Shown here piece after piece: positions 1 to 54,067 of a DNA stretch of 64,000 bases. The position numbers were made by a program, and so were the translations under genes. Origin of the DNA: Escherichia coli (GTDB taxonomy: Bacteria > Pseudomonadota > Gammaproteobacteria > Enterobacterales > Enterobacteriaceae). Numbering within the stretch: position 1 is the stretch's first letter; the number at the start of each line of letters is the position of its first letter. The stretch is from NCBI RefSeq assembly GCF_050920415.1, contig NZ_CP169309.1. One strand, 5' to 3'. Below the pieces are notes generated by a model. The model was not told the origin of the DNA. It made no database searches and saw nothing but the letters and a program-made list of their open reading frames with translations.

Positions 1-729
1 TTTTCGCTGGTGGCTGTTAACCTCGATCAAAAGCAACCGGGCTTCCCGGAACACGTTCTGCCCGAGTATCTTGAAAAGCTGGGCATTGAGTACAAGATTG
101 TGGAAGAGAACACTTACGGTATCGTGAAAGAGAAGATTCCGGAGGGCAAAACCACTTGCTCACTGTGTTCTCGTCTTCGTCGCGGAATTCTTTACCGTAC
201 CGCAACGGAACTGGGAGCGACGAAGATCGCGCTGGGTCACCATCGTGACGATATCCTGCAAACGTTGTTCTTAAATATGTTCTACGGCGGCAAGATGAAA
301 GGTATGCCTCCGAAACTGATGAGCGATGATGGCAAACATATTGTGATTCGTCCGCTGGCCTACTGCCGCGAGAAAGATATTCAGCGATTTGCCGATGCAA
401 AAGCGTTCCCGATTATTCCGTGCAACCTGTGCGGTTCACAGCCTAACCTGCAACGTCAGGTGATTGCTGACATGTTGCGTGACTGGGATAAACGTTATCC
501 GGGGCGTATCGAGACGATGTTCAGCGCGATGCAGAATGTGGTGCCGTCGCATCTGTGCGATACCAACCTGTTCGATTTCAAAGGCATTACCCACGGTTCT
601 GAAGTGGTTAACGGGGGTGATCTGGCGTTTGATCGCGAAGAGATCCCTCTACAACCGGCGGGTTGGCAGCCTGAAGAAGATGAAAATCAGTTGGATGAGT
701 TACGACTGAATGTGGTTGAAGTGAAATAA
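1..729 (+). CDS. ttcA: tRNA 2-thiocytidine biosynthesis protein TtcA, 3' portion (5' end outside window)
   Basis: ORF runs in from window start; translation matches TtcA C-terminal region (two CxxC pairs); stop at 727-729. Confidence 0.88.
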
Positions 730-857
730 CCCGGATAGCGCCCGATGCGCAAGCTTATCGGGCTACTCTTATGGAGGCCGGATAAGACGCGGCCAGCGTC
801 GCATCCGGCAATCCCGAAGAAGATGTTTACTCTTGCACCCTGCGATTCAACATTTCA

Positions 858-2231
858 TTATTTTAATAACCGCACCCGGCACGTTTTTCCTTTAATCTTC
901 CCGCCCTGTAACTGTTTCCATGCTTTATGAGCAACAGCCTGACGCACCGCGACATAGACATGCGCCGGATGCACGGCGATTTTGCCAATATCTGCGCCAT
1001 CAAGCCCGATATCTCCTGTCAGCGCACCTAATACATCACCCGGGCGCATTTTGGCTTTTTTCCCGCCATCGATACACAACGTTGCCATTTCTGCTTCCAG
1101 CGGCACAATGGAACTATTAACTGGCGGCGTTTGCCAGTTAAGTTTTATCTGCAACATGTCAGAAATGATATTGGCCCGCTGTGCTTCTTCCGGGGCACAG
1201 AAACTGATCGCCAGACCGCTATTTCCTGCACGCGCTGTACGACCAATGCGATGTACATGAACTTCAGGGTCCCACGCCAGTTCAAAGTTCACTACCAGCT
1301 CAAGCGATTTAATATCAAGACCACGCGCAGCAACATCCGTCGCGACCAGCACACGAGCGCTACCGTTAGCAAAACGTACCAGGGTCTGATCGCGGTCACG
1401 TTGCTCCAGATCGCCATGTAACGACAATGCACTTTGCCCTATGTCATTCAGCGCGTCGCAGACAGCCTGACAATCTTTTTTGGTATTGCAAAACACCACG
1501 CAAGAGGATGGCTGATGCAAACTTAATAACCGTTGCAACAGCGGAATTTTGCCTTTGCTGGATGTCTCATAAAATTGTTGTTCAATGGGAGGCAGAGCAT
1601 CTGTTGAGTCAATTTCAATCGCCAATGGATCGCGTTGAACTCGTCCGCTGATTGCGGTGATGGCTTCCGGCCAGGTTGCCGAAAACAGAAGCGTCTGTCG
1701 AGATGCTGGCGCAAAACGGATAACATCATCAATGGCATCGCTAAATCCCATATCCAGCATGCGATCGGCTTCATCCATCACCAGCATATTCAACGCATCC
1801 AGTGATACCGTGCCTTTTTGCAGATGGTCCAGCAAACGCCCCGGGGTTGCCACGATAATATGCGGCGCATGTTGCAACGAATCACGCTGCATACCGAACG
1901 GTTGACCACCGCACAAAGTCAAAATTTTGGTATTTGGCAGAAAACGCGCCAGCCGACGCAATTCACCTGCCACCTGATCCGCCAGTTCACGCGTAGGGCA
2001 CAGCACTAAAGCCTGGGTCTGAAATAGCGACGCATCAATTTTCTGTAGCAGCCCGAGGCCAAAAGCCGCCGTTTTGCCGCTGCCGGTTTTCGCCTGCACG
2101 CGAACATCTTTTCCGGCAAGGATCGCCGGAAGCGCGGCGGCCTGCACCGGCGTCATAGTTAAATAACCCAACTCATTAAGGTTCGTGAGTTGGGCGGGAG
2201 GCAAAACATTCAGGGTAGAAAAAGCGGTCAC
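858..2231 (-). CDS. dbpA: ATP-dependent RNA helicase DbpA (DEAD-box)
   Basis: 457 aa; GSGKT Walker A, DEAD box, SAT, HRIGRTAR motifs; apparent GTG start. Confidence 0.92.
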   Translation of the reverse strand: MTAFSTLNVLPPAQLTNLNELGYLTMTPVQAAALPAILAGKDVRVQAKTGSGKTAAFGLGLLQKIDASLFQTQALVLCPTRELADQVAGELRRLARFLPNTKILTLCGGQPFGMQRDSLQHAPHIIVATPGRLLDHLQKGTVSLDALNMLVMDEADRMLDMGFSDAIDDVIRFAPASRQTLLFSATWPEAITAISGRVQRDPLAIEIDSTDALPPIEQQFYETSSKGKIPLLQRLLSLHQPSSCVVFCNTKKDCQAVCDALNDIGQSALSLHGDLEQRDRDQTLVRFANGSARVLVATDVAARGLDIKSLELVVNFELAWDPEVHVHRIGRTARAGNSGLAISFCAPEEAQRANIISDMLQIKLNWQTPPVNSSIVPLEAEMATLCIDGGKKAKMRPGDVLGALTGDIGLDGADIGKIAVHPAHVYVAVRQAVAHKAWKQLQGGKIKGKTCRVRLLK

Positions 2232-2261
2232 AATCTGTTCTCGTGGTCATCGACGCAAAAA

Positions 2262-2435
2262 TTAGCAAGCGCGTATCCTCGCAGATCTACGCTCACGATG
2301 CGACAATTTAATCGGTTCTTCATCGGGTGGTGGGTCAGGCATGGGTTGCGGGCGAGGGATTGGATCGGGCACTGGAACAGGATCGCCAGGAATCGGTTCA
2401 GGGACAGGAATTTGCAAATAAATGAGTGTCGTCAT
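2262..2435 (-). CDS. hypothetical proline-rich small protein (57 aa)
   Basis: ATG at 2435 preceded by GGAGGG RBS; Pro/Asp-rich repeat-like peptide; too short for ORF track. Confidence 0.3.
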   Translation of the reverse strand: MTTLIYLQIPVPEPIPGDPVPVPDPIPRPQPMPDPPPDEEPIKLSHRERRSARIRAC

Positions 2436-2709
2436 ATTTCCCTCCGGTCATTGGGTGGACTCTTAAAGGGTAGACGCTGATATATAACAGGCAAAAAAAA
2501 GCCGACTCATCAAAGTCGGCGTCGTACGAATCAATTGTGCTATGCAGTAATTCAAAAAAGGAAGTAAGACAATATGGAGCGCAACGCCCATCGCTTGACG
2601 TTGCATTCACCTGCAAGAGAGATATTGCCCTGAATGGGTAGAGAGTTTATTGACTTCGCTCAAACTTTGCGGCGTTTTTGTATACAGATAGTAGGGAAAA
2701 TTGCTGTTG

Positions 2710-3714
<1,005 letters not shown>

Positions 3715-3947
3715 TTATTTTGTAGTCTAGCCTTCTGGCCCTGTTACGCAACATCTCATCACCCCATTACCCTGAAATGATTAATAAAATTCTGTCTAAA
3801 TTGAATACAAAAAGCAAAATGCTTTTCCATATACAAACCGTGTGAAGTGTTAAATAGCGTCTATCATTATCAGAATTATCTGATCATATGACGTGGCTTT
3901 TTTGCGATCGGATAGCAACAAAAATTGATAAAAATAACGGGATCTCA

Positions 3948-5180
3948 ATGATTACGCACAACTTCAATACCCTGGACTTACTCACCAGTCCTGTCTGGAT
4001 CGTTTCGCCCTTTGAGGAACAGTTAATTTATGCCAACAGCGCGGCGCGACTGTTGATGCAAGACCTCACGTTTAGTCAGCTACGAACCGGTCCCTATTCC
4101 GTCTCCTCACAAAAAGAACTACCGAAATACCTCTCCGATCTGCAAAACCAACACGATATTATCGAAATCCTCACTGTTCAACGTAAAGAAGAGGAAACAG
4201 CATTAAGCTGTCGGCTTGTTTTGCGAGAGCTGACAGAAGCAGAACCGGTGATTATTTTCGAAGGTATCGAAGCGCCGGCAACGCTGGGTTTAAAAGCCAG
4301 TCGTTCGGCAAATTATCAGCGCAAAAAACAAGGTTTTTATGCGCGCTTTTTTCTGACTAACTCTGCACCAATGTTGTTGATTGACCCCTCACGAGATGGC
4401 CAAATCGTCGATGCTAACCTCGCCGCGCTCAATTTCTATGGTTATAACCATGAAACGATGTGCCAGAAACATACCTGGGAAATTAATATGCTCGGGCGTC
4501 GCGTCATGCCTATCATGCATGAAATCTCGCATTTACCCGGTGGTCATAAGCCTTTGAATTTTGTTCATAAACTGGCGGATGGTTCGACTCGTCATGTGCA
4601 GACCTATGCTGGGCCGATTGAAATTTATGGCGACAAGCTCATGTTATGTATTGTGCATGATATTACTGAGCAAAAACGGCTGGAGGAGCAGCTGGAACAT
4701 GCTGCCCACCATGACGCGATGACCGGATTACTGAATCGGCGACAGTTTTATCACATTACCGAGCCAGGCCAAATGCAGCACCTCGCCATCGCTCAGGATT
4801 ACAGCTTATTGCTCATCGACACCGATCGTTTTAAACACATTAACGATCTCTATGGGCATTCTAAAGGTGATGAGGTGTTATGCGCCCTCGCCCGCACTCT
4901 CGAAAGTTGCGCTCGCAAAGGCGATTTGGTGTTTCGTTGGGGAGGCGAAGAGTTTGTCTTATTGCTACCAAGAACCCCACTGGATACCGCGCTTTCGCTG
5001 GCTGAAACTATCCGCGTAAGCGTGACAAAAGTGAGTATTTCGGGCTTACCACGCTTTACCGTCAGCATTGGTGTGGCGCATCACGAAGGAAATGAAAGCA
5101 TCGATGAACTGTTTAAACGCGTTGATGATGCTTTGTATCGGGCGAAAAATGATGGACGCAACCGCGTGCTGGCGGCATAA
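3948..5180 (+). CDS. dgcM: diguanylate cyclase DgcM (PAS-GGDEF)
   Basis: GGDEF domain with RWGGEEF motif; start chosen at MITHNF (410 aa) rather than upstream ATG of the 430-aa track ORF. Confidence 0.82.
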   Translation: MITHNFNTLDLLTSPVWIVSPFEEQLIYANSAARLLMQDLTFSQLRTGPYSVSSQKELPKYLSDLQNQHDIIEILTVQRKEEETALSCRLVLRELTEAEPVIIFEGIEAPATLGLKASRSANYQRKKQGFYARFFLTNSAPMLLIDPSRDGQIVDANLAALNFYGYNHETMCQKHTWEINMLGRRVMPIMHEISHLPGGHKPLNFVHKLADGSTRHVQTYAGPIEIYGDKLMLCIVHDITEQKRLEEQLEHAAHHDAMTGLLNRRQFYHITEPGQMQHLAIAQDYSLLLIDTDRFKHINDLYGHSKGDEVLCALARTLESCARKGDLVFRWGGEEFVLLLPRTPLDTALSLAETIRVSVTKVSISGLPRFTVSIGVAHHEGNESIDELFKRVDDALYRAKNDGRNRVLAA

Positions 5181-5200
5181 GCCGCGGATGCGTCTCGAGA

Positions 5201-5764
5201 TCAACGACTGCGCTTAGCGTGGCGCTCCCAGTTTTCTTGCTTTGCCTGCGCCGTTTTACGTAGTGCGACGTAACACGCCCCGCTGCCGCCATGATGCGGT
5301 AGCGCGGTACAATATGCCTGGACATCATCAAATTCGGTCAACCAGCGCGCCACATAGCTGCGGACAATATTGGCATGCGATTTATCTTCCCGCCCTTTAC
5401 CATGAATAATCAGCACATTACGCAAACCATCCGCCAGGGCTTGTTGAATGAAACTGAACACCATTTTGCGGCACTCTTCCACCGGCTGGCGCAAAAGATT
5501 CAGGCTCGCCTGTTGCGGATATTTACCACTGCGCAGCTTATCCAGCACCCCATGTTGCAACCCTTCCCGCCGAAACTCCAGCGGCTGGCTTAGCGGAATG
5601 ATGTCGAGAAATCCGGTGGTGAGGAAATTATCAAGTTGCAGCGTGTCGATACGCTGCGGCGCACGTTGGTTACGCGTTGGATGCCAGTGGACATCTGTAG
5701 CACGTTTCAGCGGCTGGACATCTTCCATGGCGTCAAGAAACAGCGATTTGTCGTCAAGGTTCAT
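5201..5764 (-). CDS. smrA: Smr-domain endonuclease SmrA (YdaL)
   Basis: 187 aa; C-terminal Smr domain (LIIHGKG motif). Confidence 0.8.
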   Translation of the reverse strand: MNLDDKSLFLDAMEDVQPLKRATDVHWHPTRNQRAPQRIDTLQLDNFLTTGFLDIIPLSQPLEFRREGLQHGVLDKLRSGKYPQQASLNLLRQPVEECRKMVFSFIQQALADGLRNVLIIHGKGREDKSHANIVRSYVARWLTEFDDVQAYCTALPHHGGSGACYVALRKTAQAKQENWERHAKRSR

Positions 5765-6093
5765 GTTACATCCTCCCGCAATTAAGAGCGCGATATGATA
5801 ACCAGACCGGGTCGGTCCAACAACGTATTACCCAAAATTCCAGTAATAAGTTCCAAATATTGCCGATATTTTAAGCAAAATGCTTATGCATGATTATTCA
5901 TTCACGATATTAATAATGTAACTTATATTTTCGTGAAATCTGTCACTGAAGAAAATTGGCAACTAAAGGTTAAAACCGTTATAACACAGTCACCGGCGCA
6001 GAGGAGACCATGCCGGATTTAAGACGCGGATGCACTGCTGTGTGTACTGTAGAGTCTGGCGGATGTCGACAGACTCTATTTTTTTATGCAGTT

Positions 6094-25773: not shown

Positions 25774-26478
25774 TCAACCTACCTTGCTTGATCCTGGAAA
25801 ACATGAGATCGGCAATGGATTTGGACGCGGGAAACGCAAGCGACAACCGCTTAGGCGGTGGCTGCACCTGTCTAATGTTGGATCGTTTGTCGGCTCGTCT
25901 TTGTCTGTAGCAACTGGCCCGCCAGAGTACGCACAGCCATCACCTCTATACTGCCACTGGCAAACGTCAGCAAGAATGGTGCGGCCTGGGATCACCGCCT
26001 TATCTGCATCAATTGGCGTTGACAACTCATATTGCACCTGATCCGCTGTTTCTTCACTCATGGCCTCTATAACGTAAAAGGACACCGCCTCAATAGATGG
26101 ATCAGCGTCAGGATTGCCATTTGGGAAGTTAACAGCGTCAAGGTATTTCACTTCCACCTGGCGGCGCGTAACCTTCATGCCTCGAAGGTCGTTATAGTCG
26201 GTATTCATCCCGGTAATGAGTCCGCCAATGTTTGCTACAGCCATTTGAGGGCGAGAATAAACTCCTTCGTTTTTCATTTCGAAGCCAGTAGCCTCGATTG
26301 GATAGCTGTTATAAGCCACGCCCTTCCAGATGACCGGACCGTAATAACCATTCGCGCCGGAATGGAAGCGGACAACCTCGCCACCAAGGGGAGTAAGGTC
26401 CAATTCGAACAAGTCAATGATTGCGCCGACTCCCGCATCGACGGAATCAATAATCATCTCTGTAGGTATATTGCGCAT
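25774..26478 (-). CDS. minor tail protein L
   Basis: 234 aa from MRNIPTEMI with AAGGTGA RBS; lambda gpL-like C-terminal Cys motif. Confidence 0.82.
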   Translation of the reverse strand: MRNIPTEMIIDSVDAGVGAIIDLFELDLTPLGGEVVRFHSGANGYYGPVIWKGVAYNSYPIEATGFEMKNEGVYSRPQMAVANIGGLITGMNTDYNDLRGMKVTRRQVEVKYLDAVNFPNGNPDADPSIEAVSFYVIEAMSEETADQVQYELSTPIDADKAVIPGRTILADVCQWQYRGDGCAYSGGPVATDKDEPTNDPTLDRCSHRLSGCRLRFPRPNPLPISCFPGSSKVG

Positions 26479-26616
26479 TTTATCACCTTGTTGTTTTGTG
26501 ATCTGCATCACACCGTGAATGCCAAAATGGATTGATAGCGTGATTTACAATATGTATATTTTACTCAAACGAACGGTAGTAAACAAAATGGCACAGTTTG
26601 GAACAGGATAGGACAC

Positions 26617-26775
26617 TATGAGATCCGCAAAATACGCAGAAAAAGTTTTCGTTGAAGTGAAAGGCGACATGAAAAAATTTATGGATGTTCTTATCAAAGA
26701 GATGGGAAAACCGTTCCATATAGCCGAACGTCAGTATTACGCTTGCAAGGCTAATAGCTACAACAGATACGCATG
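26617..26775 (+). CDS. moron cassette A small protein A1 (52 aa)
   Basis: AGGA RBS; opposite strand to tail operon; MRSAKYAEKVFVEVKGDMKKFMDVLIKEMGKPFHIAERQYYACKANSYNRYA. Confidence 0.4.
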
Positions 26776-26891
26776 ACAATAAACACAAAGGTAACACTAT
26801 GCAAAAATATCGTCTTGATGTGTGGATGGCTGGAAATAAAGATTGGGAAGGTTTCGGATTATTTGACAGCCGCGAACTGGCTAACGACTAA
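26772..26891 (+). CDS. moron cassette A small protein A2 (39 aa)
   Basis: ATG overlaps A1 stop (ATGA); weak otherwise. Confidence 0.25.
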   Translation, partial: HDNKHKGNTMQKYRLDVWMAGNKDWEGFGLFDSRELAND

Positions 26892-26963
26892 GGGGAAAAA
26901 CTTGTTAACTTCTTTGGACGGGCCAGGGAGTTTTAAGTAACCCCGGTACAGATAGAAAATAAG

Positions 26964-27152
26964 GTGGAAGAGATGAAATACGATATTGATAACGACGCTT
27001 GCTTTAAACAAAACTTTGCGGATTCTATGGATCAGTCTTGCCCTGAAATACACGCACACGGTTTCCCGGCAGATAATCCAGACATGAAACGCGAATACGA
27101 AAAAGCGGCGAAAGATTTCTGCATCGACAATCTGGGCGCATTCGATAGATAA
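26964..27152 (+). CDS. moron cassette A small acidic protein A3 (62 aa)
   Basis: AAGGTGGA RBS; four Cys; no recognised domain. Confidence 0.45.
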   Translation: MEEMKYDIDNDACFKQNFADSMDQSCPEIHAHGFPADNPDMKREYEKAAKDFCIDNLGAFDR

Positions 27153-27161
27153 GGCGGCAAT

Positions 27162-27410
27162 ATGGCGAGGCGAAAACATAGCGATTATATGTACACGCTG
27201 AAGCAGGCCGCCCGCCTTATCGGTTATCATGAACACGAATTTATTGATTTGCTGATTGAGCGCGGGATTTTATACCAGGTCTGTTTAACGCTGTACCCGA
27301 AAGCGAAATACTTGCAGGAAAAGTTATTCATCATCATGACGGATGAAAACCAGGTTAATCACTCATTCGTCACTGCCAAAGGCGTTAATTATCTGCGCGA
27401 TAACTTATAG
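27162..27410 (+). CDS. moron cassette A putative HTH DNA-binding protein A4 (82 aa)
   Basis: AAGGCGG RBS; YTLKQAARLIGYHEHEFIDLLIERGIL resembles an HTH. Confidence 0.45.
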   Translation: MARRKHSDYMYTLKQAARLIGYHEHEFIDLLIERGILYQVCLTLYPKAKYLQEKLFIIMTDENQVNHSFVTAKGVNYLRDNL

Positions 27411-27420
27411 GTGACAGATT

Positions 27421-27537
27421 ATGAAAATAGAAGTTTTGGCGCTAATAGTAATGGGATTGATAGTATTTGGTGTTCATGCTGTAGATCTGGACTGGAAAAC
27501 GATAGCAGAAAATATAGCGTTAATGGAAATGGAATAA
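27421..27537 (+). CDS. moron cassette A small hydrophobic peptide A5 (38 aa)
   Basis: AGGTGA RBS; N-terminal hydrophobic helix. Confidence 0.35.
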   Translation: MKIEVLALIVMGLIVFGVHAVDLDWKTIAENIALMEME

Positions 27538-27542
27538 TAATA

Positions 27543-27568
27543 ACCCCGCTTCGCGCGGGGTCGTGTTT
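27543..27568. terminator. bidirectional rho-independent terminator
   Basis: ccccgc-ttcg-cgcgggg hairpin with T-rich flanks on both strands. Confidence 0.55.
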
Positions 27569-27752
27569 ATACGCCATCAAGTAAAAATAAAACTTCCTTG
27601 CCTTCTCTTGATCTGCATCCTACATAACCGTCACCCATGTCATGAAGATACCAGGTCTCACCATTATCAGCTTTTACAGTAAGATCGTTGATTTCATAGT
27701 CGTCAAACAATGTAAAAGCGCCCGTGCGGTCCACTACACAAATAGCATACAT
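27567..27752 (-). CDS. hypothetical small protein downstream of gpM (61 aa)
   Basis: GGAGG RBS before ATG at 27752; upstream ATG of track ORF overlaps M. Confidence 0.4.
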   Translation of the reverse strand: MYAICVVDRTGAFTLFDDYEINDLTVKADNGETWYLHDMGDGYVGCRSREGKEVLFLLDGV

Positions 27753-27765
27753 ATTGACACCTCCA

Positions 27766-28119
27766 TTAATTGACAACTTGCTCAAAAGTTGCGTTTAGCG
27801 TGTACAAAGACCCGTCTTTAGTCATGCTCCATCGGCGGCAAACAAAAAGCCTTTGCACGTTATCCATCGACGGCGACCAGTAAAAAGCCTCGACCGCGCC
27901 GCGCGCCCTCAAGAATGCTTCCGCCTGGATTGCTACGTTTTCACCATCACCACATCCGGCGCTACTGCCTTTAAATACCAGGGTGTAGCTATCAAGCAAT
28001 GGATTGATACCTTTTACCTGTCTTTGCTCATAACCATCGCCCAGCTTAACAACGGATACGTCCGGCTCCCTGGTCACGCTGTAGCTTCGTTGTGGCGTCC
28101 ATCTGAACACTTCCGGCAT
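27766..28119 (-). CDS. minor tail protein M
   Basis: 117 aa; lambda gpM-like, C-terminal FEQVVN as in lambda M. Confidence 0.82.
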   Translation of the reverse strand: MPEVFRWTPQRSYSVTREPDVSVVKLGDGYEQRQVKGINPLLDSYTLVFKGSSAGCGDGENVAIQAEAFLRARGAVEAFYWSPSMDNVQRLFVCRRWSMTKDGSLYTLNATFEQVVN

Positions 28120-28308
28120 AAAACCCCCATAAGTTACATTTTGTATATATCTTTACGCGCTTCTACGCGAAAAATAAGATCTTCATCACAATGATTATAG
28201 CTAGTTTACAAAATGGCTTCACATAGCACACAACAAGATGTATATAAAAAGCAAGAAGAAAAGCAGTACCAACGAAGGAGGCCCAAAAATGAAACGCTAT
28301 GAGTAGTA

Positions 28309-28443
28309 ATGCTAAACAACGCATTCGAACAAGTGGAAATAGCAATCGTTAAGGGTTTCGACGACGCATTTAAATACGGTCAATTCATGATTAATGCAAA
28401 AGAAGATGAATACCGTGATTTCTTCCTGAAGGCTCTTAATTAA
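28309..28443 (+). CDS. moron cassette B small protein B1 (44 aa; possible antitoxin-like partner)
   Basis: preceded by GGAGG and a 5-codon uORF; 20 nt upstream of B2. Confidence 0.35.
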   Translation: MLNNAFEQVEIAIVKGFDDAFKYGQFMINAKEDEYRDFFLKALN

Positions 28444-28462
28444 GAATAATCGGGGGTGAGCT

Positions 28463-28717
28463 ATGAAACTGGTAGCGATTGACAAAAACCTGAAAGTACA
28501 GAAAAACGCACAGGACCGGATTATCAAGAAAGGTAAGGAACTGCTTAAAGCATTTTTGAAGAAAGAGGCGCGCCCCAAAAAGTTACGCGATGGTTATGGC
28601 TTTAAATTCGATATCAATCATGACTGGCGGCTGTTCAGCGAAGACCTCAAAGTCTGGTTAATAATCGATCACCTGGAATATAACAGGCACTGCGGGGTTA
28701 AAGGGGCGCATAAGTGA
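28463..28717 (+). CDS. moron cassette B protein B2 (84 aa), RelE/YoeB-like toxin fold candidate
   Basis: GGGGGTGA RBS; basic N-terminal helix then HDWRLF and DHLEY segments resembling YoeB/RelE by eye. Confidence 0.4.
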   Translation: MKLVAIDKNLKVQKNAQDRIIKKGKELLKAFLKKEARPKKLRDGYGFKFDINHDWRLFSEDLKVWLIIDHLEYNRHCGVKGAHK

Positions 28718-28725
28718 GGCGGGAT

Positions 28726-28818
28726 ATGGAGGACGATAAATTCACCTGGCGGGAGATCTGGAATATTTGGTTGGTGATGTTTTCTCGCAGCTATATAGCC
28801 AGAAACGGAAGATTGTAA
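28726..28818 (+). CDS. moron cassette B small peptide B3 (30 aa)
   Basis: GAGG RBS; Trp-rich hydrophobic peptide. Confidence 0.3.
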   Translation: MEDDKFTWREIWNIWLVMFSRSYIARNGRL

Positions 28819-28836
28819 TTTGCGGAGGAAAATAAA

Positions 28837-29013
28837 ATGAAAAACCCGGCAAATAAAAGCAATGTAAAACGTATAGCCTGGATCGTGAAATGGATGGATA
28901 GTAAAGGAGACACATATACTGAACCATTTTTCAAACATACTGATGCAGTATTTGCAAGAAGCGTAAGAGGCGGGAAAATTGAAAGAGGATATACAAGTTT
29001 TGAGAATAACTAA
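28837..29013 (+). CDS. moron cassette B small basic protein B4 (58 aa)
   Basis: GGAGG RBS; followed by terminator. Confidence 0.4.
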   Translation: MKNPANKSNVKRIAWIVKWMDSKGDTYTEPFFKHTDAVFARSVRGGKIERGYTSFENN

Positions 29014-29020
29014 AATATAA

Positions 29021-29050
29021 CCCCGGCATTGTACCGGGGTTTTGTTTATT
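29021..29050. terminator. rho-independent terminator (bidirectional)
   Basis: ccccgg-cattgta-ccgggg hairpin followed by TTTTGTTTATTT. Confidence 0.6.
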
Positions 29051-31385
29051 TGCGGCGCGGTTGCAATATTCCCCCTGGTCTTTGTGATTCCCTTGTTATC
29101 ATTTTCATTGCCACACGTTCCATTGTTTGTTCAAGTCTGCGGCTATCTTCGTCGCTAAATCCGTTTGTGGTCTGAATGTTAATATTGACAGGCATACTAA
29201 TACCGCCGCCACCAATATCACGACCAGGTATAACCCTGCCATTCTCGCCAGGAATCATGTATTGATTGCCGTTAGACGTCTGGAATAGCTCCGGCCTGTT
29301 GTGTTCCCCTACACGGTACATGTTGCCACCAATGACGCTACCACCATTAAAGCGCCCGCCGCCGAAAATGGATGTTGCCAGTGACATGATCGCAGTAAGC
29401 GCCGCCGAGCCAGCCGCCGCCCAGCTACCGCCAGTTGATGCCGCTGTCGCTGCCGCCGCCGGGGCCGCCGCCGCAGCAATGCTTCCCTGAGCGGCAACCG
29501 CGCTTGCCGTTGTGCTGGCCTGCGTGGCCTTGCTTTGTGTCTCCATCATGATTTGATCTGCTATCCAGTTGGCAGCTATGTCCGAAAGTCTGTTACCGAT
29601 ATTCCCAAGTATATTGCTTCCTAAGTTAGCAAAAACATCACTTAATGATTGAGTGCCGTTTAGCAGGCCAACAAGGGCGTTACTCATACCACCTTTAAGG
29701 CCATTAACGCAATCACCGATCAGGCCGTTAGTATCGCTTTGCGCCTGCCATTGCTCCCATTTTAGATCGCGAATCTGTTGCTCATAGGCCAACAATTCCT
29801 GTTTCTGTTGCGCTTCGGTAGCGCCCAGGTCTATAAGCATTTGCTTACGGACGGCCCATTCATTTTGCGCCTGCTGGATGGGGTCAACTTCGCCTTTTAG
29901 CTGGTCCATCGGGCTAACTATTTGCGACCATTTATCACGCAATTCATCTACCGGAATTTGTGCTAACTCTTCTTTTAGCTCCTTGCCGATTCCCTTTTGA
30001 GCGGCGCGGTATTCAAGGAGTGTAATTTTCCCCTGGGCGAATGCAGCATCAATGGCCTTGCCGTTCTCTAACGCTTTGCGCATGGCGGCTGCGTCTTTGT
30101 TGTACTGGTCAGAAACGCTTATGCCTTTGTCACCAAGCCGATCAGCTTCAGTTTTCTTCTCTTTTTTCTGTTTTTTCGGCTTGTCTACTGGCTTGTCGAA
30201 TCCGGTAATAGTTCCGTCATTGGCGGCATTCTGTTCACTTTTCCTTGCTTCTTCTGTAGCCTGGATTGCAGCGGTCAGATCATCCTGTAATTGCATGACC
30301 TTACCAACGGTCTTACCATATTTCTTCTCATAGTTGCTGTCGTATTCGTCGGTTTGTTCTCCTACCACCTCTTTCATCCATTTGTAGCCGTCCATTAGCG
30401 CTTTGATTGGTGTCACCATTGCGATGATCTTCTCTGCCACCTCACCAGCCTTGATTCCGACATCCTCAAATATATCAATGAATTCGCTGCCAGCCGTCTT
30501 CAGGGTGATAAAGCAGGTTTTAGCGAAATCAGCACCATCACCTAAAGCCTTAACACCTTTCGTGACAAGATCGATACCAGCAACAACCGTATCGGATACA
30601 CCAAAAAGATCGTCCAACTGTTCGACAAGCCCCATAACTTCGACTTTAAGCTCATTCAGGGCCATACCGGATGTGCGCGGCAACTGCGCGAACTTCTCGT
30701 TTGTTTCCTGCGTAGCCGCCTGGATTGCGTTAACCATCCTTTCTGCCGTGATCTTACCGTCCAGCATTTCGGCGCGGAATTGGCCCATAGATAACCCCAT
30801 CTGGCGGGCCATTGTCTGTACGATGGTCGGGGTGTTCTCTAACAGGCTATTGAATTCTTCAGCACGAAGCACGCCGCCGTCGATAGACTGACGGAATTGA
30901 CGCATTGAGTTTGACATCTGCTCCGCAGATGCGCCGCCCAACGCCCCCATTTTCTGAATCGTACCTACCAGGTTAAGCAATTGCCCTTCAGTGGCGGACG
31001 TGTTCTTCAGGGAGATAGCCAGGCCTTGCCACAGATCCCCGGTATCCTTCATGCTTTGGCCTGTTTCTTTTGATATTGCTTTCAGGCCGTCGAAAACCCG
31101 CCCGGCGGACTCCGCATCGCCCGTAAGCATTTTGATTTTTACGCGAAGCATTTTTGCTTGCTCCGCCATATCCATAAATTGGCGCACAGCCTCCGCAGCA
31201 ATTAGCAGATGGATAACCCTGGTTAGTGCTTTGATTGATGTCTTCAGTGTGTTTACCTGGCGATCTGCCTGTTTAGCACCGCGCTCTATACGGTCAAAGG
31301 CCTGGTCTGCCTGTCGTTGTGCTACAAGAAGTTGTCCTGTTTTTGCGTCAACTTCGTAATAAATTGTGCCTACACTGGTAGCCAT
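29046..31385 (-). CDS. tail tape measure protein
   Basis: 779 aa, coiled-coil rich, Ala/Gly-rich hydrophobic segment near C-terminus; upstream of M. Confidence 0.85.
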   Translation of the reverse strand: MATSVGTIYYEVDAKTGQLLVAQRQADQAFDRIERGAKQADRQVNTLKTSIKALTRVIHLLIAAEAVRQFMDMAEQAKMLRVKIKMLTGDAESAGRVFDGLKAISKETGQSMKDTGDLWQGLAISLKNTSATEGQLLNLVGTIQKMGALGGASAEQMSNSMRQFRQSIDGGVLRAEEFNSLLENTPTIVQTMARQMGLSMGQFRAEMLDGKITAERMVNAIQAATQETNEKFAQLPRTSGMALNELKVEVMGLVEQLDDLFGVSDTVVAGIDLVTKGVKALGDGADFAKTCFITLKTAGSEFIDIFEDVGIKAGEVAEKIIAMVTPIKALMDGYKWMKEVVGEQTDEYDSNYEKKYGKTVGKVMQLQDDLTAAIQATEEARKSEQNAANDGTITGFDKPVDKPKKQKKEKKTEADRLGDKGISVSDQYNKDAAAMRKALENGKAIDAAFAQGKITLLEYRAAQKGIGKELKEELAQIPVDELRDKWSQIVSPMDQLKGEVDPIQQAQNEWAVRKQMLIDLGATEAQQKQELLAYEQQIRDLKWEQWQAQSDTNGLIGDCVNGLKGGMSNALVGLLNGTQSLSDVFANLGSNILGNIGNRLSDIAANWIADQIMMETQSKATQASTTASAVAAQGSIAAAAAPAAAATAASTGGSWAAAGSAALTAIMSLATSIFGGGRFNGGSVIGGNMYRVGEHNRPELFQTSNGNQYMIPGENGRVIPGRDIGGGGISMPVNINIQTTNGFSDEDSRRLEQTMERVAMKMITRESQRPGGILQPRRK

Positions 31386-51952: not shown

Positions 51953-52356
51953 TGCTCACCCCACATATTCGTCGCGTATTCGTCAATATCCGGTAGCAGG
52001 TCGCCGCGTTCGCGTACCTTGATAAACAATCGCCCGCCTTTTACCTTCCGGCAGCGTACAATTTTTATTGAGTCGATTTGTCCGTCGTCAGTCCAGAATC
52101 CGGCGTAAGTAAGGCTATCAAAAAGGCATTTGGGGATATTATCCAGATCTCTGATCCGGTTATCCGGCGGCGCGGCATAAATGGCGATTGCCAGTCGGCA
52201 AGATAGGTTAATGTCTAAATTTAATAATTCGATGATGTCTTTTACTTGCTCCCGGTATTCCTTCCCCACTTTGCTGATATAGTGAAAACCGCGCGAATGT
52301 CGGTAATAGCGGTTATTCGATGGCGGGTAAGGCAGGCTAAAAGTATATTCATTCAT
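51949..52356 (-). CDS. rusA: Holliday junction resolvase RusA
   Basis: 135 aa; LPYPPSNNRYYRH N-terminus and Asp-rich catalytic region as in RusA. Confidence 0.88.
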   Translation of the reverse strand: MNEYTFSLPYPPSNNRYYRHSRGFHYISKVGKEYREQVKDIIELLNLDINLSCRLAIAIYAAPPDNRIRDLDNIPKCLFDSLTYAGFWTDDGQIDSIKIVRCRKVKGGRLFIKVRERGDLLPDIDEYATNMWGEQ

Positions 52357-52958
52357 GCCGCCTTTCTCCTTAAGGCGTCCAATTTTGCCTGATAGATGTT
52401 TATTAGCTCCTTACATTCTGCGATCGTCCATTTGTGCGTATCGTTGTTGTTCTCCAGTGCTACCACCCTGGCGAGGCCAATTTTTCGAATCAGCGCCGGG
52501 CGATACCCTCCGATGTTGCCGTCTAGTGTCTGGTTGCAGTGCCTGCATTGCTTGTGACAATTATCCTCGTTGAAGCGAAGGTGTCCGGCGGCGGCTACCG
52601 TCCTGTAATGGCCTGCATCCCACCCGCATTGCTCACCGTAGTAAGTCCCGCATGATATGCACGGCAATCGCGCGTCACGCTCGCGTATATAAGCGTTAAA
52701 AACGTTTTGCGCCTGTTTAATCCAGTAGCTACGCGGATTTAACTGCTTCCGCTTCCGGTTGCGTTCTTCCCGCTGGCTATCACGGCGTTTCTTCCGTTCC
52801 ATAGCCTTCATAGCCTTCTCACGGTCGCGGCATAGCTGATCAAACTTCAGTTCTTCCAGACATTCATCGCTGCACCACGTTTGATTGTGATATTTAGGCT
52901 CAAAAAAAACGCCGCAGCATTTGCAACGGCGTCTTATGGGTTTTTTAGGGTTCTGCAT
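52353..52958 (-). CDS. NinG/Rap-like recombination protein
   Basis: 201 aa from MQNPKKPIRRR with GGGGTGG RBS; Cys/His-rich; nin-region position. Confidence 0.7.
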   Translation of the reverse strand: MQNPKKPIRRRCKCCGVFFEPKYHNQTWCSDECLEELKFDQLCRDREKAMKAMERKKRRDSQREERNRKRKQLNPRSYWIKQAQNVFNAYIRERDARLPCISCGTYYGEQCGWDAGHYRTVAAAGHLRFNEDNCHKQCRHCNQTLDGNIGGYRPALIRKIGLARVVALENNNDTHKWTIAECKELINIYQAKLDALRRKAA

Positions 52959-52972
52959 AAAAACCACCCCTA

Positions 52973-53149
52973 TTATTTTTGATTCTCTGTTTCGTTCAGC
53001 CTTTCGGCGTGTCCGGCCCTTAGCCGATGATCTAAGCATTCGTTGCACTCGTTACGGCCTCCTTTCTTCGTGCTGCATACATTGCACATTGCACGCATGA
53101 CGCTCTCTCGTTCATAGTCGTCATGCCATTGGTAATCATCAAAAGACAT
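52973..53149 (-). CDS. small zinc-ribbon protein (NinF-like, 58 aa)
   Basis: AGGAG RBS; two CxxC pairs; first gene after promoter-like element. Confidence 0.45.
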   Translation of the reverse strand: MSFDDYQWHDDYERESVMRAMCNVCSTKKGGRNECNECLDHRLRAGHAERLNETENQK

Positions 53150-53270: not shown

Positions 53271-53286
53271 TGTGACCAAAATCACA
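53271..53286. promoter_or_regulatory. CRP-like binding site TGTGA-N6-TCACA
   Basis: tgtgaccaaaatcaca is a perfect match to CRP half-site consensus; lies upstream of minus-strand promoter-like TTGTTC-16-TATACT. Confidence 0.4.
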
Positions 53287-53308: not shown

Positions 53309-54067
53309 TTAGTCCGGTAAAACGCGGTTAAGCGTAGTCCGCGTGATGGCCCGGTCGTTAGCCAGGAATACAGCACGGGCGAAGCCGCGCGGCGTTAGTG
53401 ACCGGATCATCTTTGTTCGCTTTGCCCGGCCTCCGGTTTTCGCCCACCCAGGGTTATCACCAGAGTTAAGATCTACAGGTCTAAAAATCGGCTGTTTAAA
53501 TCCGTTGCCGCACCAGATGCAAGTTTTCTTCGTGTACGCGTCGCGCGCCGGGTAAACATCCGGGAAAGCAGGATGCTTGTCATCTTCCGGCAGATAGCCA
53601 CCGTAAGCGCACGGATTGAAGATAAAATCTGGTTTACGCCATAACGTTGACAGTGCTCCTACCGGATTTTCCACCATCCACGGGACGTTATACATGTCAG
53701 CCAGTGTTTCGACCAGTTTCGCGTTATATGCCGCCTTCACCTGGAAGTCAGGATCTTTTTCACGCTTGCTGGAGAACCAACGAGCGCCGGACACGGCGAG
53801 ATCGTCGCATGGTGGGAAGGCAAAAATAATGTCAGGATCTGGATAAACAGACAATTCAGGGGAGAATATTACCAGGAAATGGCTATCAATCCAGACATTG
53901 ACATATTCAATATTGGGATGAATTACTTTTACTCCGTCATAATCCCCGTGATTAGCGCCGTCATAGTTGAAGCAATAGCACTTATATCCAGCTTCAGCCC
54001 AATCTTTAACGGCGTACCCGCTGCCATCGTAAAGCGACCATACCACCCAATTTTTAAGACTGCTCAT
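53309..54067 (-). CDS. putative DNA cytosine-5 methyltransferase-like protein (short)
   Basis: 252 aa; LYDGSGYA (motif I-like), FAFPPCDDLAVSG (PC motif IV-like), MVENPVGAL (ENV motif VI-like). Confidence 0.45.
   Translation of the reverse strand: MSSLKNWVVWSLYDGSGYAVKDWAEAGYKCYCFNYDGANHGDYDGVKVIHPNIEYVNVWIDSHFLVIFSPELSVYPDPDIIFAFPPCDDLAVSGARWFSSKREKDPDFQVKAAYNAKLVETLADMYNVPWMVENPVGALSTLWRKPDFIFNPCAYGGYLPEDDKHPAFPDVYPARDAYTKKTCIWCGNGFKQPIFRPVDLNSGDNPGWAKTGGRAKRTKMIRSLTPRGFARAVFLANDRAITRTTLNRVLPD

Follow-up and report, generated by a model that had tools for sequence, protein, structure and literature searches.

A family-wide accessory operon with a KilAC-only protein and a conserved CRP-type site between tail genes L and M of an Escherichia coli prophage

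The window analysed here is a 64-kb stretch of Escherichia coli DNA (64,000 nt; contig NZ_CP169309.1 of assembly GCF_050920415.1) that carries a prophage, and we were interested in a block of small genes located between the phage tail genes L and M, with the focus on positions 26512–27765. The left flank of the window (1–6000) is 100% identical to the dbpA-ttcA region of E. coli. The prophage belongs to the mEpimmI group (mEp021, mEp010, mEp554, MagusPhagus), with 87–90% identity over 72–85% of the regulatory half. Both tail genes lie on the minus strand, L at 25774–26478 and M at 27766–28119, and are separated by a gap of ∼1.25 kb; in phage lambda L and M are neighbouring genes. The gap contains a cassette of plus-strand genes, which is oriented head-on to the tail genes, together with one further minus-strand gene. 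Its features are, from left to right in window coordinates:

26497–26512, no strand assigned: CRP-type inverted repeat TGTGATCTGCATCACA (TGTGA-N6-TCACA) with a perfect core
26532–26560, plus strand: sigma-70-type promoter TTGATA-17-TATATT, 10 of 12 consensus positions, conserved hexamers
26618–26776, plus strand: gene A52 (52 aa), an open reading frame (ORF) with an AGGA-type ribosome-binding site (RBS) in the variable first slot
26799–27152, plus strand: gene B (117 codons), disrupted by TAA at 26889–26891 (codon 31) and at 26934–26936 (codon 46)
26973–27152, plus strand: ORF of the C-terminal domain of B (59 aa), starting at an internal Met 6 nt after AAGGTGGA
27162–27410, plus strand: gene C82 (82 aa) with a Shine-Dalgarno-like sequence, encoding a single KilAC/ANT domain (Pfam PF03374)
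27421–27537, plus strand: gene D38 (38 aa) with the RBS AGGTGA
27542–27562, no strand assigned: GC-rich hairpin, terminator-like on both strands
27567–27752, minus strand: gene E61 (61 aa) with the RBS GGAGGTG, directly after M and outside the plus-strand cassette

This inventory differs from the original prediction, which had been made from the letters of the window and listed five plus-strand ORFs with RBS (52, 39, 62, 82 and 38 aa). The 52-, 82- and 38-aa ORFs were confirmed, whereas the other two turned out to be fragments of gene B. No ORF of 39 aa was found at the place given for it, where the ORF 26799–26891 encodes 30 aa; the sole plus-strand ORF of 39 aa (27563–27682) is antisense to E61 and was rejected as a cassette gene. 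Since the 30-aa and 62-aa ORFs are two fragments of one gene, the cassette contains four genes instead of five, one of them broken. The conserved minus-strand gene E61 had been overlooked.

In order to see how the locus behaves across the phage family, we compared it with 50 related loci. Of these, 44 are IMG/VR contigs, and 3 each come from deposited phages and E. coli genomes; the window brings the total to 51. The order of elements is the same in 50 of 50: L (minus) is followed by the promoter (plus), a first gene, B (115–117 aa) and an optional 77-aa gene, then by the 82-aa KilAC gene, an optional peptide, the hairpin, E61 (minus) and M (minus). In some loci other small cargo occupies the space 3′ of the KilAC gene. 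The extra DNA described earlier as inserted between L and M is real as far as the gap is concerned, but given that all 50 relatives carry the same block in the same place and order, the cassette is to be regarded as an old, fixed part of the mEpimmI phage family and not as a recent insertion. It is found at the same position in mEp021, mEp554, MagusPhagus and E. coli prophages, with 83–90% nucleotide identity between the window cassette and those of mEpimmI phages; compared with these other copies, the window copy carries the rarer first gene A52 and a nonsense-disrupted B. The mEpimmI group has been described before, and a ‘phage antirepressor protein KilAC-like’ was core in one of the two core-gene analyses of its pangenome (PMC11893012); the cassette, its promoter and its CRP-type site were not analysed in that study. 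In the deposited records the cassette genes are named ‘hypothetical protein’ or ‘putative antirepressor / KilAC domain’.

We then asked for signs of selection, using ∼40 unique alleles each of B, C82, D38 and E61. The median pairwise ratio of nonsynonymous to synonymous divergence (dN/dS) was 0.22 for B, 0.095 for C82, 0.18 for the D peptide and 0.088 for E61, compared with 0.04 for L and 0.07 for M. Purifying selection of this kind (dN/dS 0.088–0.22) identifies B, C82, the D peptide and E61 as real genes. The synonymous divergence of C82 (dS 0.32) is about half that of its neighbours B, E61, L and M (0.67–0.91). The C-half of B, too, is highly conserved at third codon positions, although within the 116-aa allele class its dS (0.51) is similar to that of the N-half (0.47). 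This pattern in the block formed by the C-half of B and C82 (26973–27410) suggests either a mosaic that has spread recently or an extra constraint at the nucleotide level. Judged by order, conservation and selection, the cassette is real and functional in the evolutionary sense, an already deposited and uncharacterised accessory operon that is found throughout the mEpimmI family and lies head-on inside the tail cluster between M-E61 and L. What is new is a CRP-type site kept across the family, a gene B of two domains that is truncated recurrently, and the recognition of the deposited "antirepressor" as a KilAC-only protein.

The promoter-like element of the original prediction was recovered as described, and its TTGAT and TATATT are invariant in the 51 loci. 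Pairwise identity in the regulatory region is 0.87–0.92 (0.92 for the promoter region), compared with 0.68–0.70 at the third codon positions of L and M. Consensus matches in a 2-kb stretch showed no excess over shuffled sequences, neither for promoters (3 versus 4.7) nor for terminators (3 versus 2.3); the promoter and terminator calls are supported because they are conserved across relatives, not by the consensus scan. A terminator-like match within B (26910–26930) has 3 GC pairs and was judged to be due to chance, the scan total being not above that of the shuffles. The bidirectional terminator predicted at the end of the cassette corresponds to the GC-rich hairpin, which scores on both strands. 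It folds with −19.5 and −20.4 kcal/mol on the two strands (z-scores −2.4 and −3.2), is conserved in relatives and is annotated as a terminator in mEp021 and mEp554. An Rfam search of positions 26300–29200 at E ≤ 1 found no RNA family.

Upstream of the promoter lies the CRP-type inverted repeat. The exact pattern TGTGA-N6-TCACA occurs 2 times in the window, compared with 0.03 expected occurrences. The half-sites TGTGA and TCAC are kept in 49 of the 51 loci while the 6-nt spacer is free to vary, which is the signature of a dimer-binding site. The centre of the site lies 27.5 nt upstream of the −35 hexamer, a distance that shrinks to 26.5 nt in relatives whose sequence is shorter by 1 nt. These values correspond to about −62.5 here and −61.5 in the shorter relatives, counted from a transcription start that is predicted, via the −10 hexamer, near 26567. 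Reckoned from textbook coordinates, this spacing matches the class I geometry of lac P1. The cassette shares with class I CRP promoters of the lac P1 type the pattern TGTGA-N6-TCACA, and the distance of ∼−61.5 to −62.5 from the predicted start would agree with such promoters, whose site is centred near −61.5 or farther upstream by whole helical turns. However, its −35 hexamer is near consensus, whereas according to textbook knowledge that of activator-dependent promoters is usually poor. The geometry of the site does not fit a promoter reading into L. An RNA hairpin on the late mRNA was rejected as an explanation of the repeat, since folding gives z-scores of −0.7 and −1.0 and a relative pairs differently.

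Two further observations concern these elements. The second perfect TGTGA-N6-TCACA of the window, TGTGACCAAAATCACA at 53271–53286, lies in the gap between two minus-strand ORFs of 252 aa (53309–54067) and 231 aa (52353–53048). Furthermore, the segment AACAAAATGG 3′ of the cassette promoter (26582–26611) is conserved across all loci; its ATG begins the first gene (MARRC...) in most relatives, and where A52 is the first gene, it begins a mini-ORF of 7 codons (MAQFGTG followed by a stop, 26588–26611) just 5′ of A52.

Gene B is the broken member of the operon. The 30-aa ORF and the ‘62-aa’ ORF lie in one frame (translation of 26799–27152) and are homologous to intact genes of 115–117 aa in relatives; the second ORF extends over 26964–27152 if read from a GTG and encodes 59 aa from the ATG at 26973. 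An intact ancestral allele (P0030) differs from the B of the window only by E31, K46 and one further residue. The gene belongs to PHROG 38567, a family of unknown function. Its N-terminal part of ∼57 residues occurs in at least three allelic types and was modelled by AlphaFold2 (AF2) as a beta-beta-alpha-beta fold with a predicted local distance difference test score (pLDDT) of ∼90. High conservation and an acidic character mark the C-terminal part of ∼59 residues, for which AF2 gave a low-confidence, mostly disordered model with one helix. The K-V-E codons before the internal Met are conserved to at least 90% at their third positions, and the internal Met itself is invariant in 39 unique sequences. 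According to models and alignments, the N-domain of B is folded but can be replaced, and its acidic C-domain is conserved.

Database searches with B yielded little. A PDB sequence search found no match, a profile HMMER search of 1.84 billion representative proteins returned only 14 relatives, none of them informative on function, and a Foldseek search of the B model against PDB and AFDB50 was significant only for its own family; the N-domain model showed a mere resemblance to small uncharacterised phage proteins. The C-domain has stand-alone homologues of 56 aa (P0013, P0015); an unrelated phage, whose portal is of the Mu type, encodes P0013 in a row of small genes. In this phage (L051, 4001–4478) the C-domain homologue of 56 aa comes first, then a protein of 59 aa and a hydrophobic peptide of 42 aa, an order reminiscent of B C-domain, KilAC and D38 in the window. 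The 59-aa neighbour of P0013 was considered as a KilAC relative and rejected, as no similarity was found. We also considered a minus-strand ORF of 125 aa at the junction of B and C82 (26859–27236), which is open in relatives too. Its dN/dS is 0.65–0.97, compared with 0.10–0.12 for the sense frame; codon for codon it is the exact reverse complement of the sense frame and evolves neutrally, so it is an artefact of sense-codon usage and was rejected as a gene.

Disruption by stop codons, which had been named at the outset as a sign against the cassette, was found in the N-terminal half of B, while the other genes are intact here. Both stops of the window fall in the N-domain (26799–26972), so that in terms of its sequence the N-domain is knocked out in this prophage by two nonsense mutations, with all other parts of the operon intact. 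Annotations of precisely the 59-aa C-fragment exist on 14 contigs, and 6 contigs have the 30-aa N-fragment annotated. The N-domain has also been hit independently elsewhere: STEC306-308 have a stop in place of W16, and on 8 contigs an A5 run contains a −1 frameshift (P0032). Three metagenomic loci, all from one dataset, have a 1-nt deletion in the A5 run after the start codon, which may be a sequencing error. The positions concerned are 26799–26972 in the window and 1782–1860 in locus L004, and the proteins are P0030 and P0032. B is intact in four other complete genomes with A52-type cassettes. These cases suggest that the N-domain has been lost repeatedly, in at least three independent events in E. 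coli prophages, with the C-domain ORF always spared; since there are only three or four events, the pattern is suggestive and not significant.

All 51 loci have C82, the 82-aa protein, in intact form. It had been predicted to be helix-turn-helix (HTH)-like, and this was borne out: residues 7–82 match positions 20–105 of the 108 in the KilAC/ANT model PF03374 (E = 2.3e-7), and the AF2 model (pLDDT 67) consists of two helices followed by a beta hairpin in an HTH-like arrangement. C82 belongs to the uncharacterised family PHROG 5689 and gives weak matches to Ant families including Ant phrog_63 (E = 4e-4 and 0.07), as well as a weak match to UPF0175 (E = 0.0066). By tblastn it resembles the C-termini of Ant/Rha-type proteins from Vibrio, Cronobacter, Hafnia and Stx phages (30–40% identity, E = 2e-6), and a PDB sequence search found no match. 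An N-terminal AntA/B, Bro-N, KilA-N or pRha domain is absent, the 82 residues being KilAC only. Because it has no N-terminal partner domain, C82 is not a classical two-domain antirepressor.

KilAC domains acting on their own have been described in three systems. CreP, a single-domain KilAC protein of 103 aa from Acinetobacter baylyi, is bacteriostatic and causes filamentation (bioRxiv 10.1101/2024.01.05.574328). The KilAC domain of AriS alone inhibits the SOS response, probably at RecA (PMC9043618), and the KilA-C domain of Phi11 Gp07 inhibits division in E. coli (PMC5944126). CreP has no N-terminal DNA-binding domain and in AriS and Gp07 the KilAC part is separable from one, while C82 consists of KilAC alone. 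‘AKxLxL’ and ‘TxKG’ motifs are common to CreP and the C-terminus of P1 KilA (bioRxiv 10.1101/2024.01.05.574328). The TxKG motif is found in C82 as T71-A-K-G74, with T and G invariant; ‘AKxLxL’ is partial (A16-A-R-L-I-G), as read without direct alignment to CreP or KilA. C82 and CreP are both small and both contain TxKG, but C82 is shorter. The two also differ in their control, which is by CRISPR repression for CreP and by a predicted sigma-70/CRP-type promoter for C82. By analogy with these three proteins, the activity of C82 may be directed at the host.

The first slot is occupied in a mosaic fashion: besides the window, two other loci have A52, and the rest carry an unrelated gene of 57–73 aa. 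Beyond the 51-locus set A52 was found in four further E. coli genomes; an identical 52-aa protein is annotated in E. coli genomes, and relatives of 52–53 aa have 78–98% identity. Pfam, PHROG, NCBIfam and PADLOC gave no match to A52. The last plus-strand ORF had been called hydrophobic, which holds for the N-terminus of D38: its N-terminus MKIEVLALIVMGLIVFGVHA resembles a signal peptide or transmembrane segment, and its tail is acidic. Of the 51 loci, 35 have the peptide, with alleles of 38 or 45 aa, and 16 lack it; it has no family by PHROG or Pfam. E61, present in 51 of 51 loci, belongs to PHROG 3249 (function unknown); to our knowledge, lambda has no gene at this position. PADLOC and NCBIfam searches with all six products found no match. 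For the B–C82 pair no toxin-antitoxin family was detected by PADLOC, NCBIfam or Pfam, which was our test for a type II module, and PHROG, PADLOC and Pfam revealed no homology of D38 or the other products to the exclusion proteins gp15, Cor and Sie.

A second opposite-strand cassette (28163–29045) is located between M and the tape-measure gene. It contains ORFs of 44 aa (28309–28443), 84 aa (28463–28717) and 58 aa (28837–29013) and a strong hairpin with a T-run at ∼29022–29046. RefSeq names the counterpart of the 84-aa protein in strain N25 ‘ParE family toxin-like protein’; the 84-aa protein of the window had no match in NCBIfam. The upstream region of this cassette has a −10-like motif, ATGTATAT, in common with the L–M cassette.

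In its organisation the L–M cassette resembles the morons of lambdoid phages, for which descriptive criteria have been published (PMC3594210) and of which HK97 gene 15 in the tail operon is an example. The GC content is 0.39–0.45 in the cassette and 0.48–0.52 in the flanking tail genes, and the GC skew is reversed in the cassette. It fits the moron description because it is extra DNA with its own promoter-like and terminator-like elements and lower GC on the opposite strand. With HK97 gene 15 it shares the position of extra DNA in the tail genes, these elements, the lower GC and small products, and by this analogy its products are plausibly prophage-expressed. The cassette differs from lambdoid morons by having several genes instead of one, by lying on the opposite strand and by being fixed in the family and not sporadic, and no sequence similarity to HK97 gp15 was found. 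Expression in the lysogen is plausible from the sequence, because the host-type promoter and the CRP-type site are conserved and the orientation is head-on to late transcription.

We favour a reading in which the cassette is an accessory operon of the mEpimmI phages that is stimulated by CRP and encodes a host-directed KilAC-only protein with the C-domain of B as a possible partner; taken as a whole, we consider it evenly balanced whether this reading is right. Host RNA polymerase would transcribe the operon while the prophage is repressed, or else during early infection, and cyclic AMP (cAMP)-CRP would stimulate it from the class I position. On the late mRNA, the cassette amounts to ∼1 kb of untranslated antisense including the hairpin. 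The Q-modified late polymerase would pass through this hairpin from the other side and so suppress the operon in the late phase of infection. As to the KilAC-only protein, its target would be a host process and not a phage repressor, with cell division or the RecA/SOS response as candidates. The acidic C-domain of B would still be translatable from the internal start and may be a partner or modulator of the KilAC protein.

Several points weigh against this reading. With regard to control, the −62.5 position of the CRP-type site rests on a predicted transcription start, a −35 hexamer this close to consensus may make CRP dispensable, a protein other than CRP could bind the inverted repeat, and the U-tracts of the hairpin are weak on both sides. 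With regard to the KilAC protein, the model of C82 is of moderate confidence (pLDDT 67) and Foldseek against PDB gave no match below E = 0.05, C82 is only 30–40% identical to other KilAC domains, and it was likened to CreP, AriS and Gp07 by their descriptions, not by direct sequence comparison. Finally, the link between B and C82 consists of adjacency and shared low synonymous divergence only, profile comparison showing no relationship between the two, and A52, B, D38 and E61 are assigned no function by PADLOC, NCBIfam or Pfam.

Four rival explanations were considered. The first is that C82 is a classical antirepressor which brings about induction by binding a CI-type repressor, of its own or of a co-resident prophage; in that case the cassette would work as a switch for induction, perhaps coupled to carbon starvation via CRP. 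Both RefSeq and the mEp021 record name the protein ‘antirepressor KilAC domain’, and the weak Ant matches in PHROG and the resemblance to the C-termini of annotated Ant/Rha proteins point in the same direction. However, C82 has none of the N-terminal domains that characterised antirepressor-type proteins carry, and in AriS it is the N-terminal domain that is directed at the phage, whereas KilAC acts on the host (PMC9043618). Furthermore, a constitutive host-type promoter for an inducer would be self-defeating in a stable lysogen unless tightly gated. We therefore regard an antirepressor function as rather unlikely.

Protection of the lysogen was weighed next, that is, exclusion of superinfecting phages or anti-phage defence by D38 or the variable first gene, as for HK97 gp15. 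Location and organisation correspond to those of the known moron (PMC3594210), part of D38 looks like a membrane segment or signal, and variable cargo is found in the first slot and 3′ of the KilAC gene, as at defence hotspots. Yet it is the KilAC gene and the C-domain of B that form the invariant core, and the membrane peptide is missing from 16 of the 51 loci; moreover, no product has a match in PADLOC or homology to gp15, Cor or Sie proteins. A protective role appears improbable to us.

Alternatively, the genes could be accessory genes of the lytic cycle, silent in the lysogen and switched on soon after infection or induction to take over the host or counter its defences, with the small acidic C-domain of B as an inhibitor of a host defence or enzyme. 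P0013, encoded among the small genes of the unrelated phage with the Mu-type portal, would fit such a role, as would the acidic and, according to AF2, largely disordered C-domain; acidic, disordered character is typical of phage inhibitor proteins. The host sigma-70 promoter is compatible with early expression too. On the other hand, a head-on place in the late operon is unusual for early genes, which these phages group in the regulatory region (PMC11893012), and the cassette has a terminator of its own and lower GC in common with morons expressed in lysogens. A role restricted to the lytic cycle is accordingly given a low probability.

That the small ORFs are decaying remnants without current role is very improbable: B is nonsense-disrupted here and independently affected in STEC306-308 and the frameshift lineage, and most products have no known family, but B, C82, D38 and E61 are under purifying selection, C82 is intact in every locus, conservation is higher in the regulatory region than at synonymous sites and all lesions spare the C-domain of B, so that decay is largely refuted for the cassette as a whole and would be true only of the N-terminal half of B in the window prophage.

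Returning to the favoured accessory operon, a more far-reaching version can be formulated, which we consider quite unlikely. In this version the cassette would be a lysogenic-conversion module gated by cAMP-CRP, in which the KilAC protein brakes division or damps RecA/SOS at low carbon and the C-domain of B serves as its partner or antidote. Damping of RecA/SOS would result in less prophage induction, and an antidote role of the C-domain would explain why the lesions remove only the N-domain of B.

The practical value at present is a corrected annotation, with one pseudogene, one missed gene and one conserved promoter with a CRP-type site. If B and C82 were indeed a toxin-antidote-like pair, it would be of a kind not contained in current catalogues. 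If the favoured reading is true, a common family of gut E. coli prophages would carry a host-directed regulator that responds to the carbon state; catabolite signalling would be linked to prophage behaviour or host growth, and the operon would offer a tractable E. coli model for KilAC activity.

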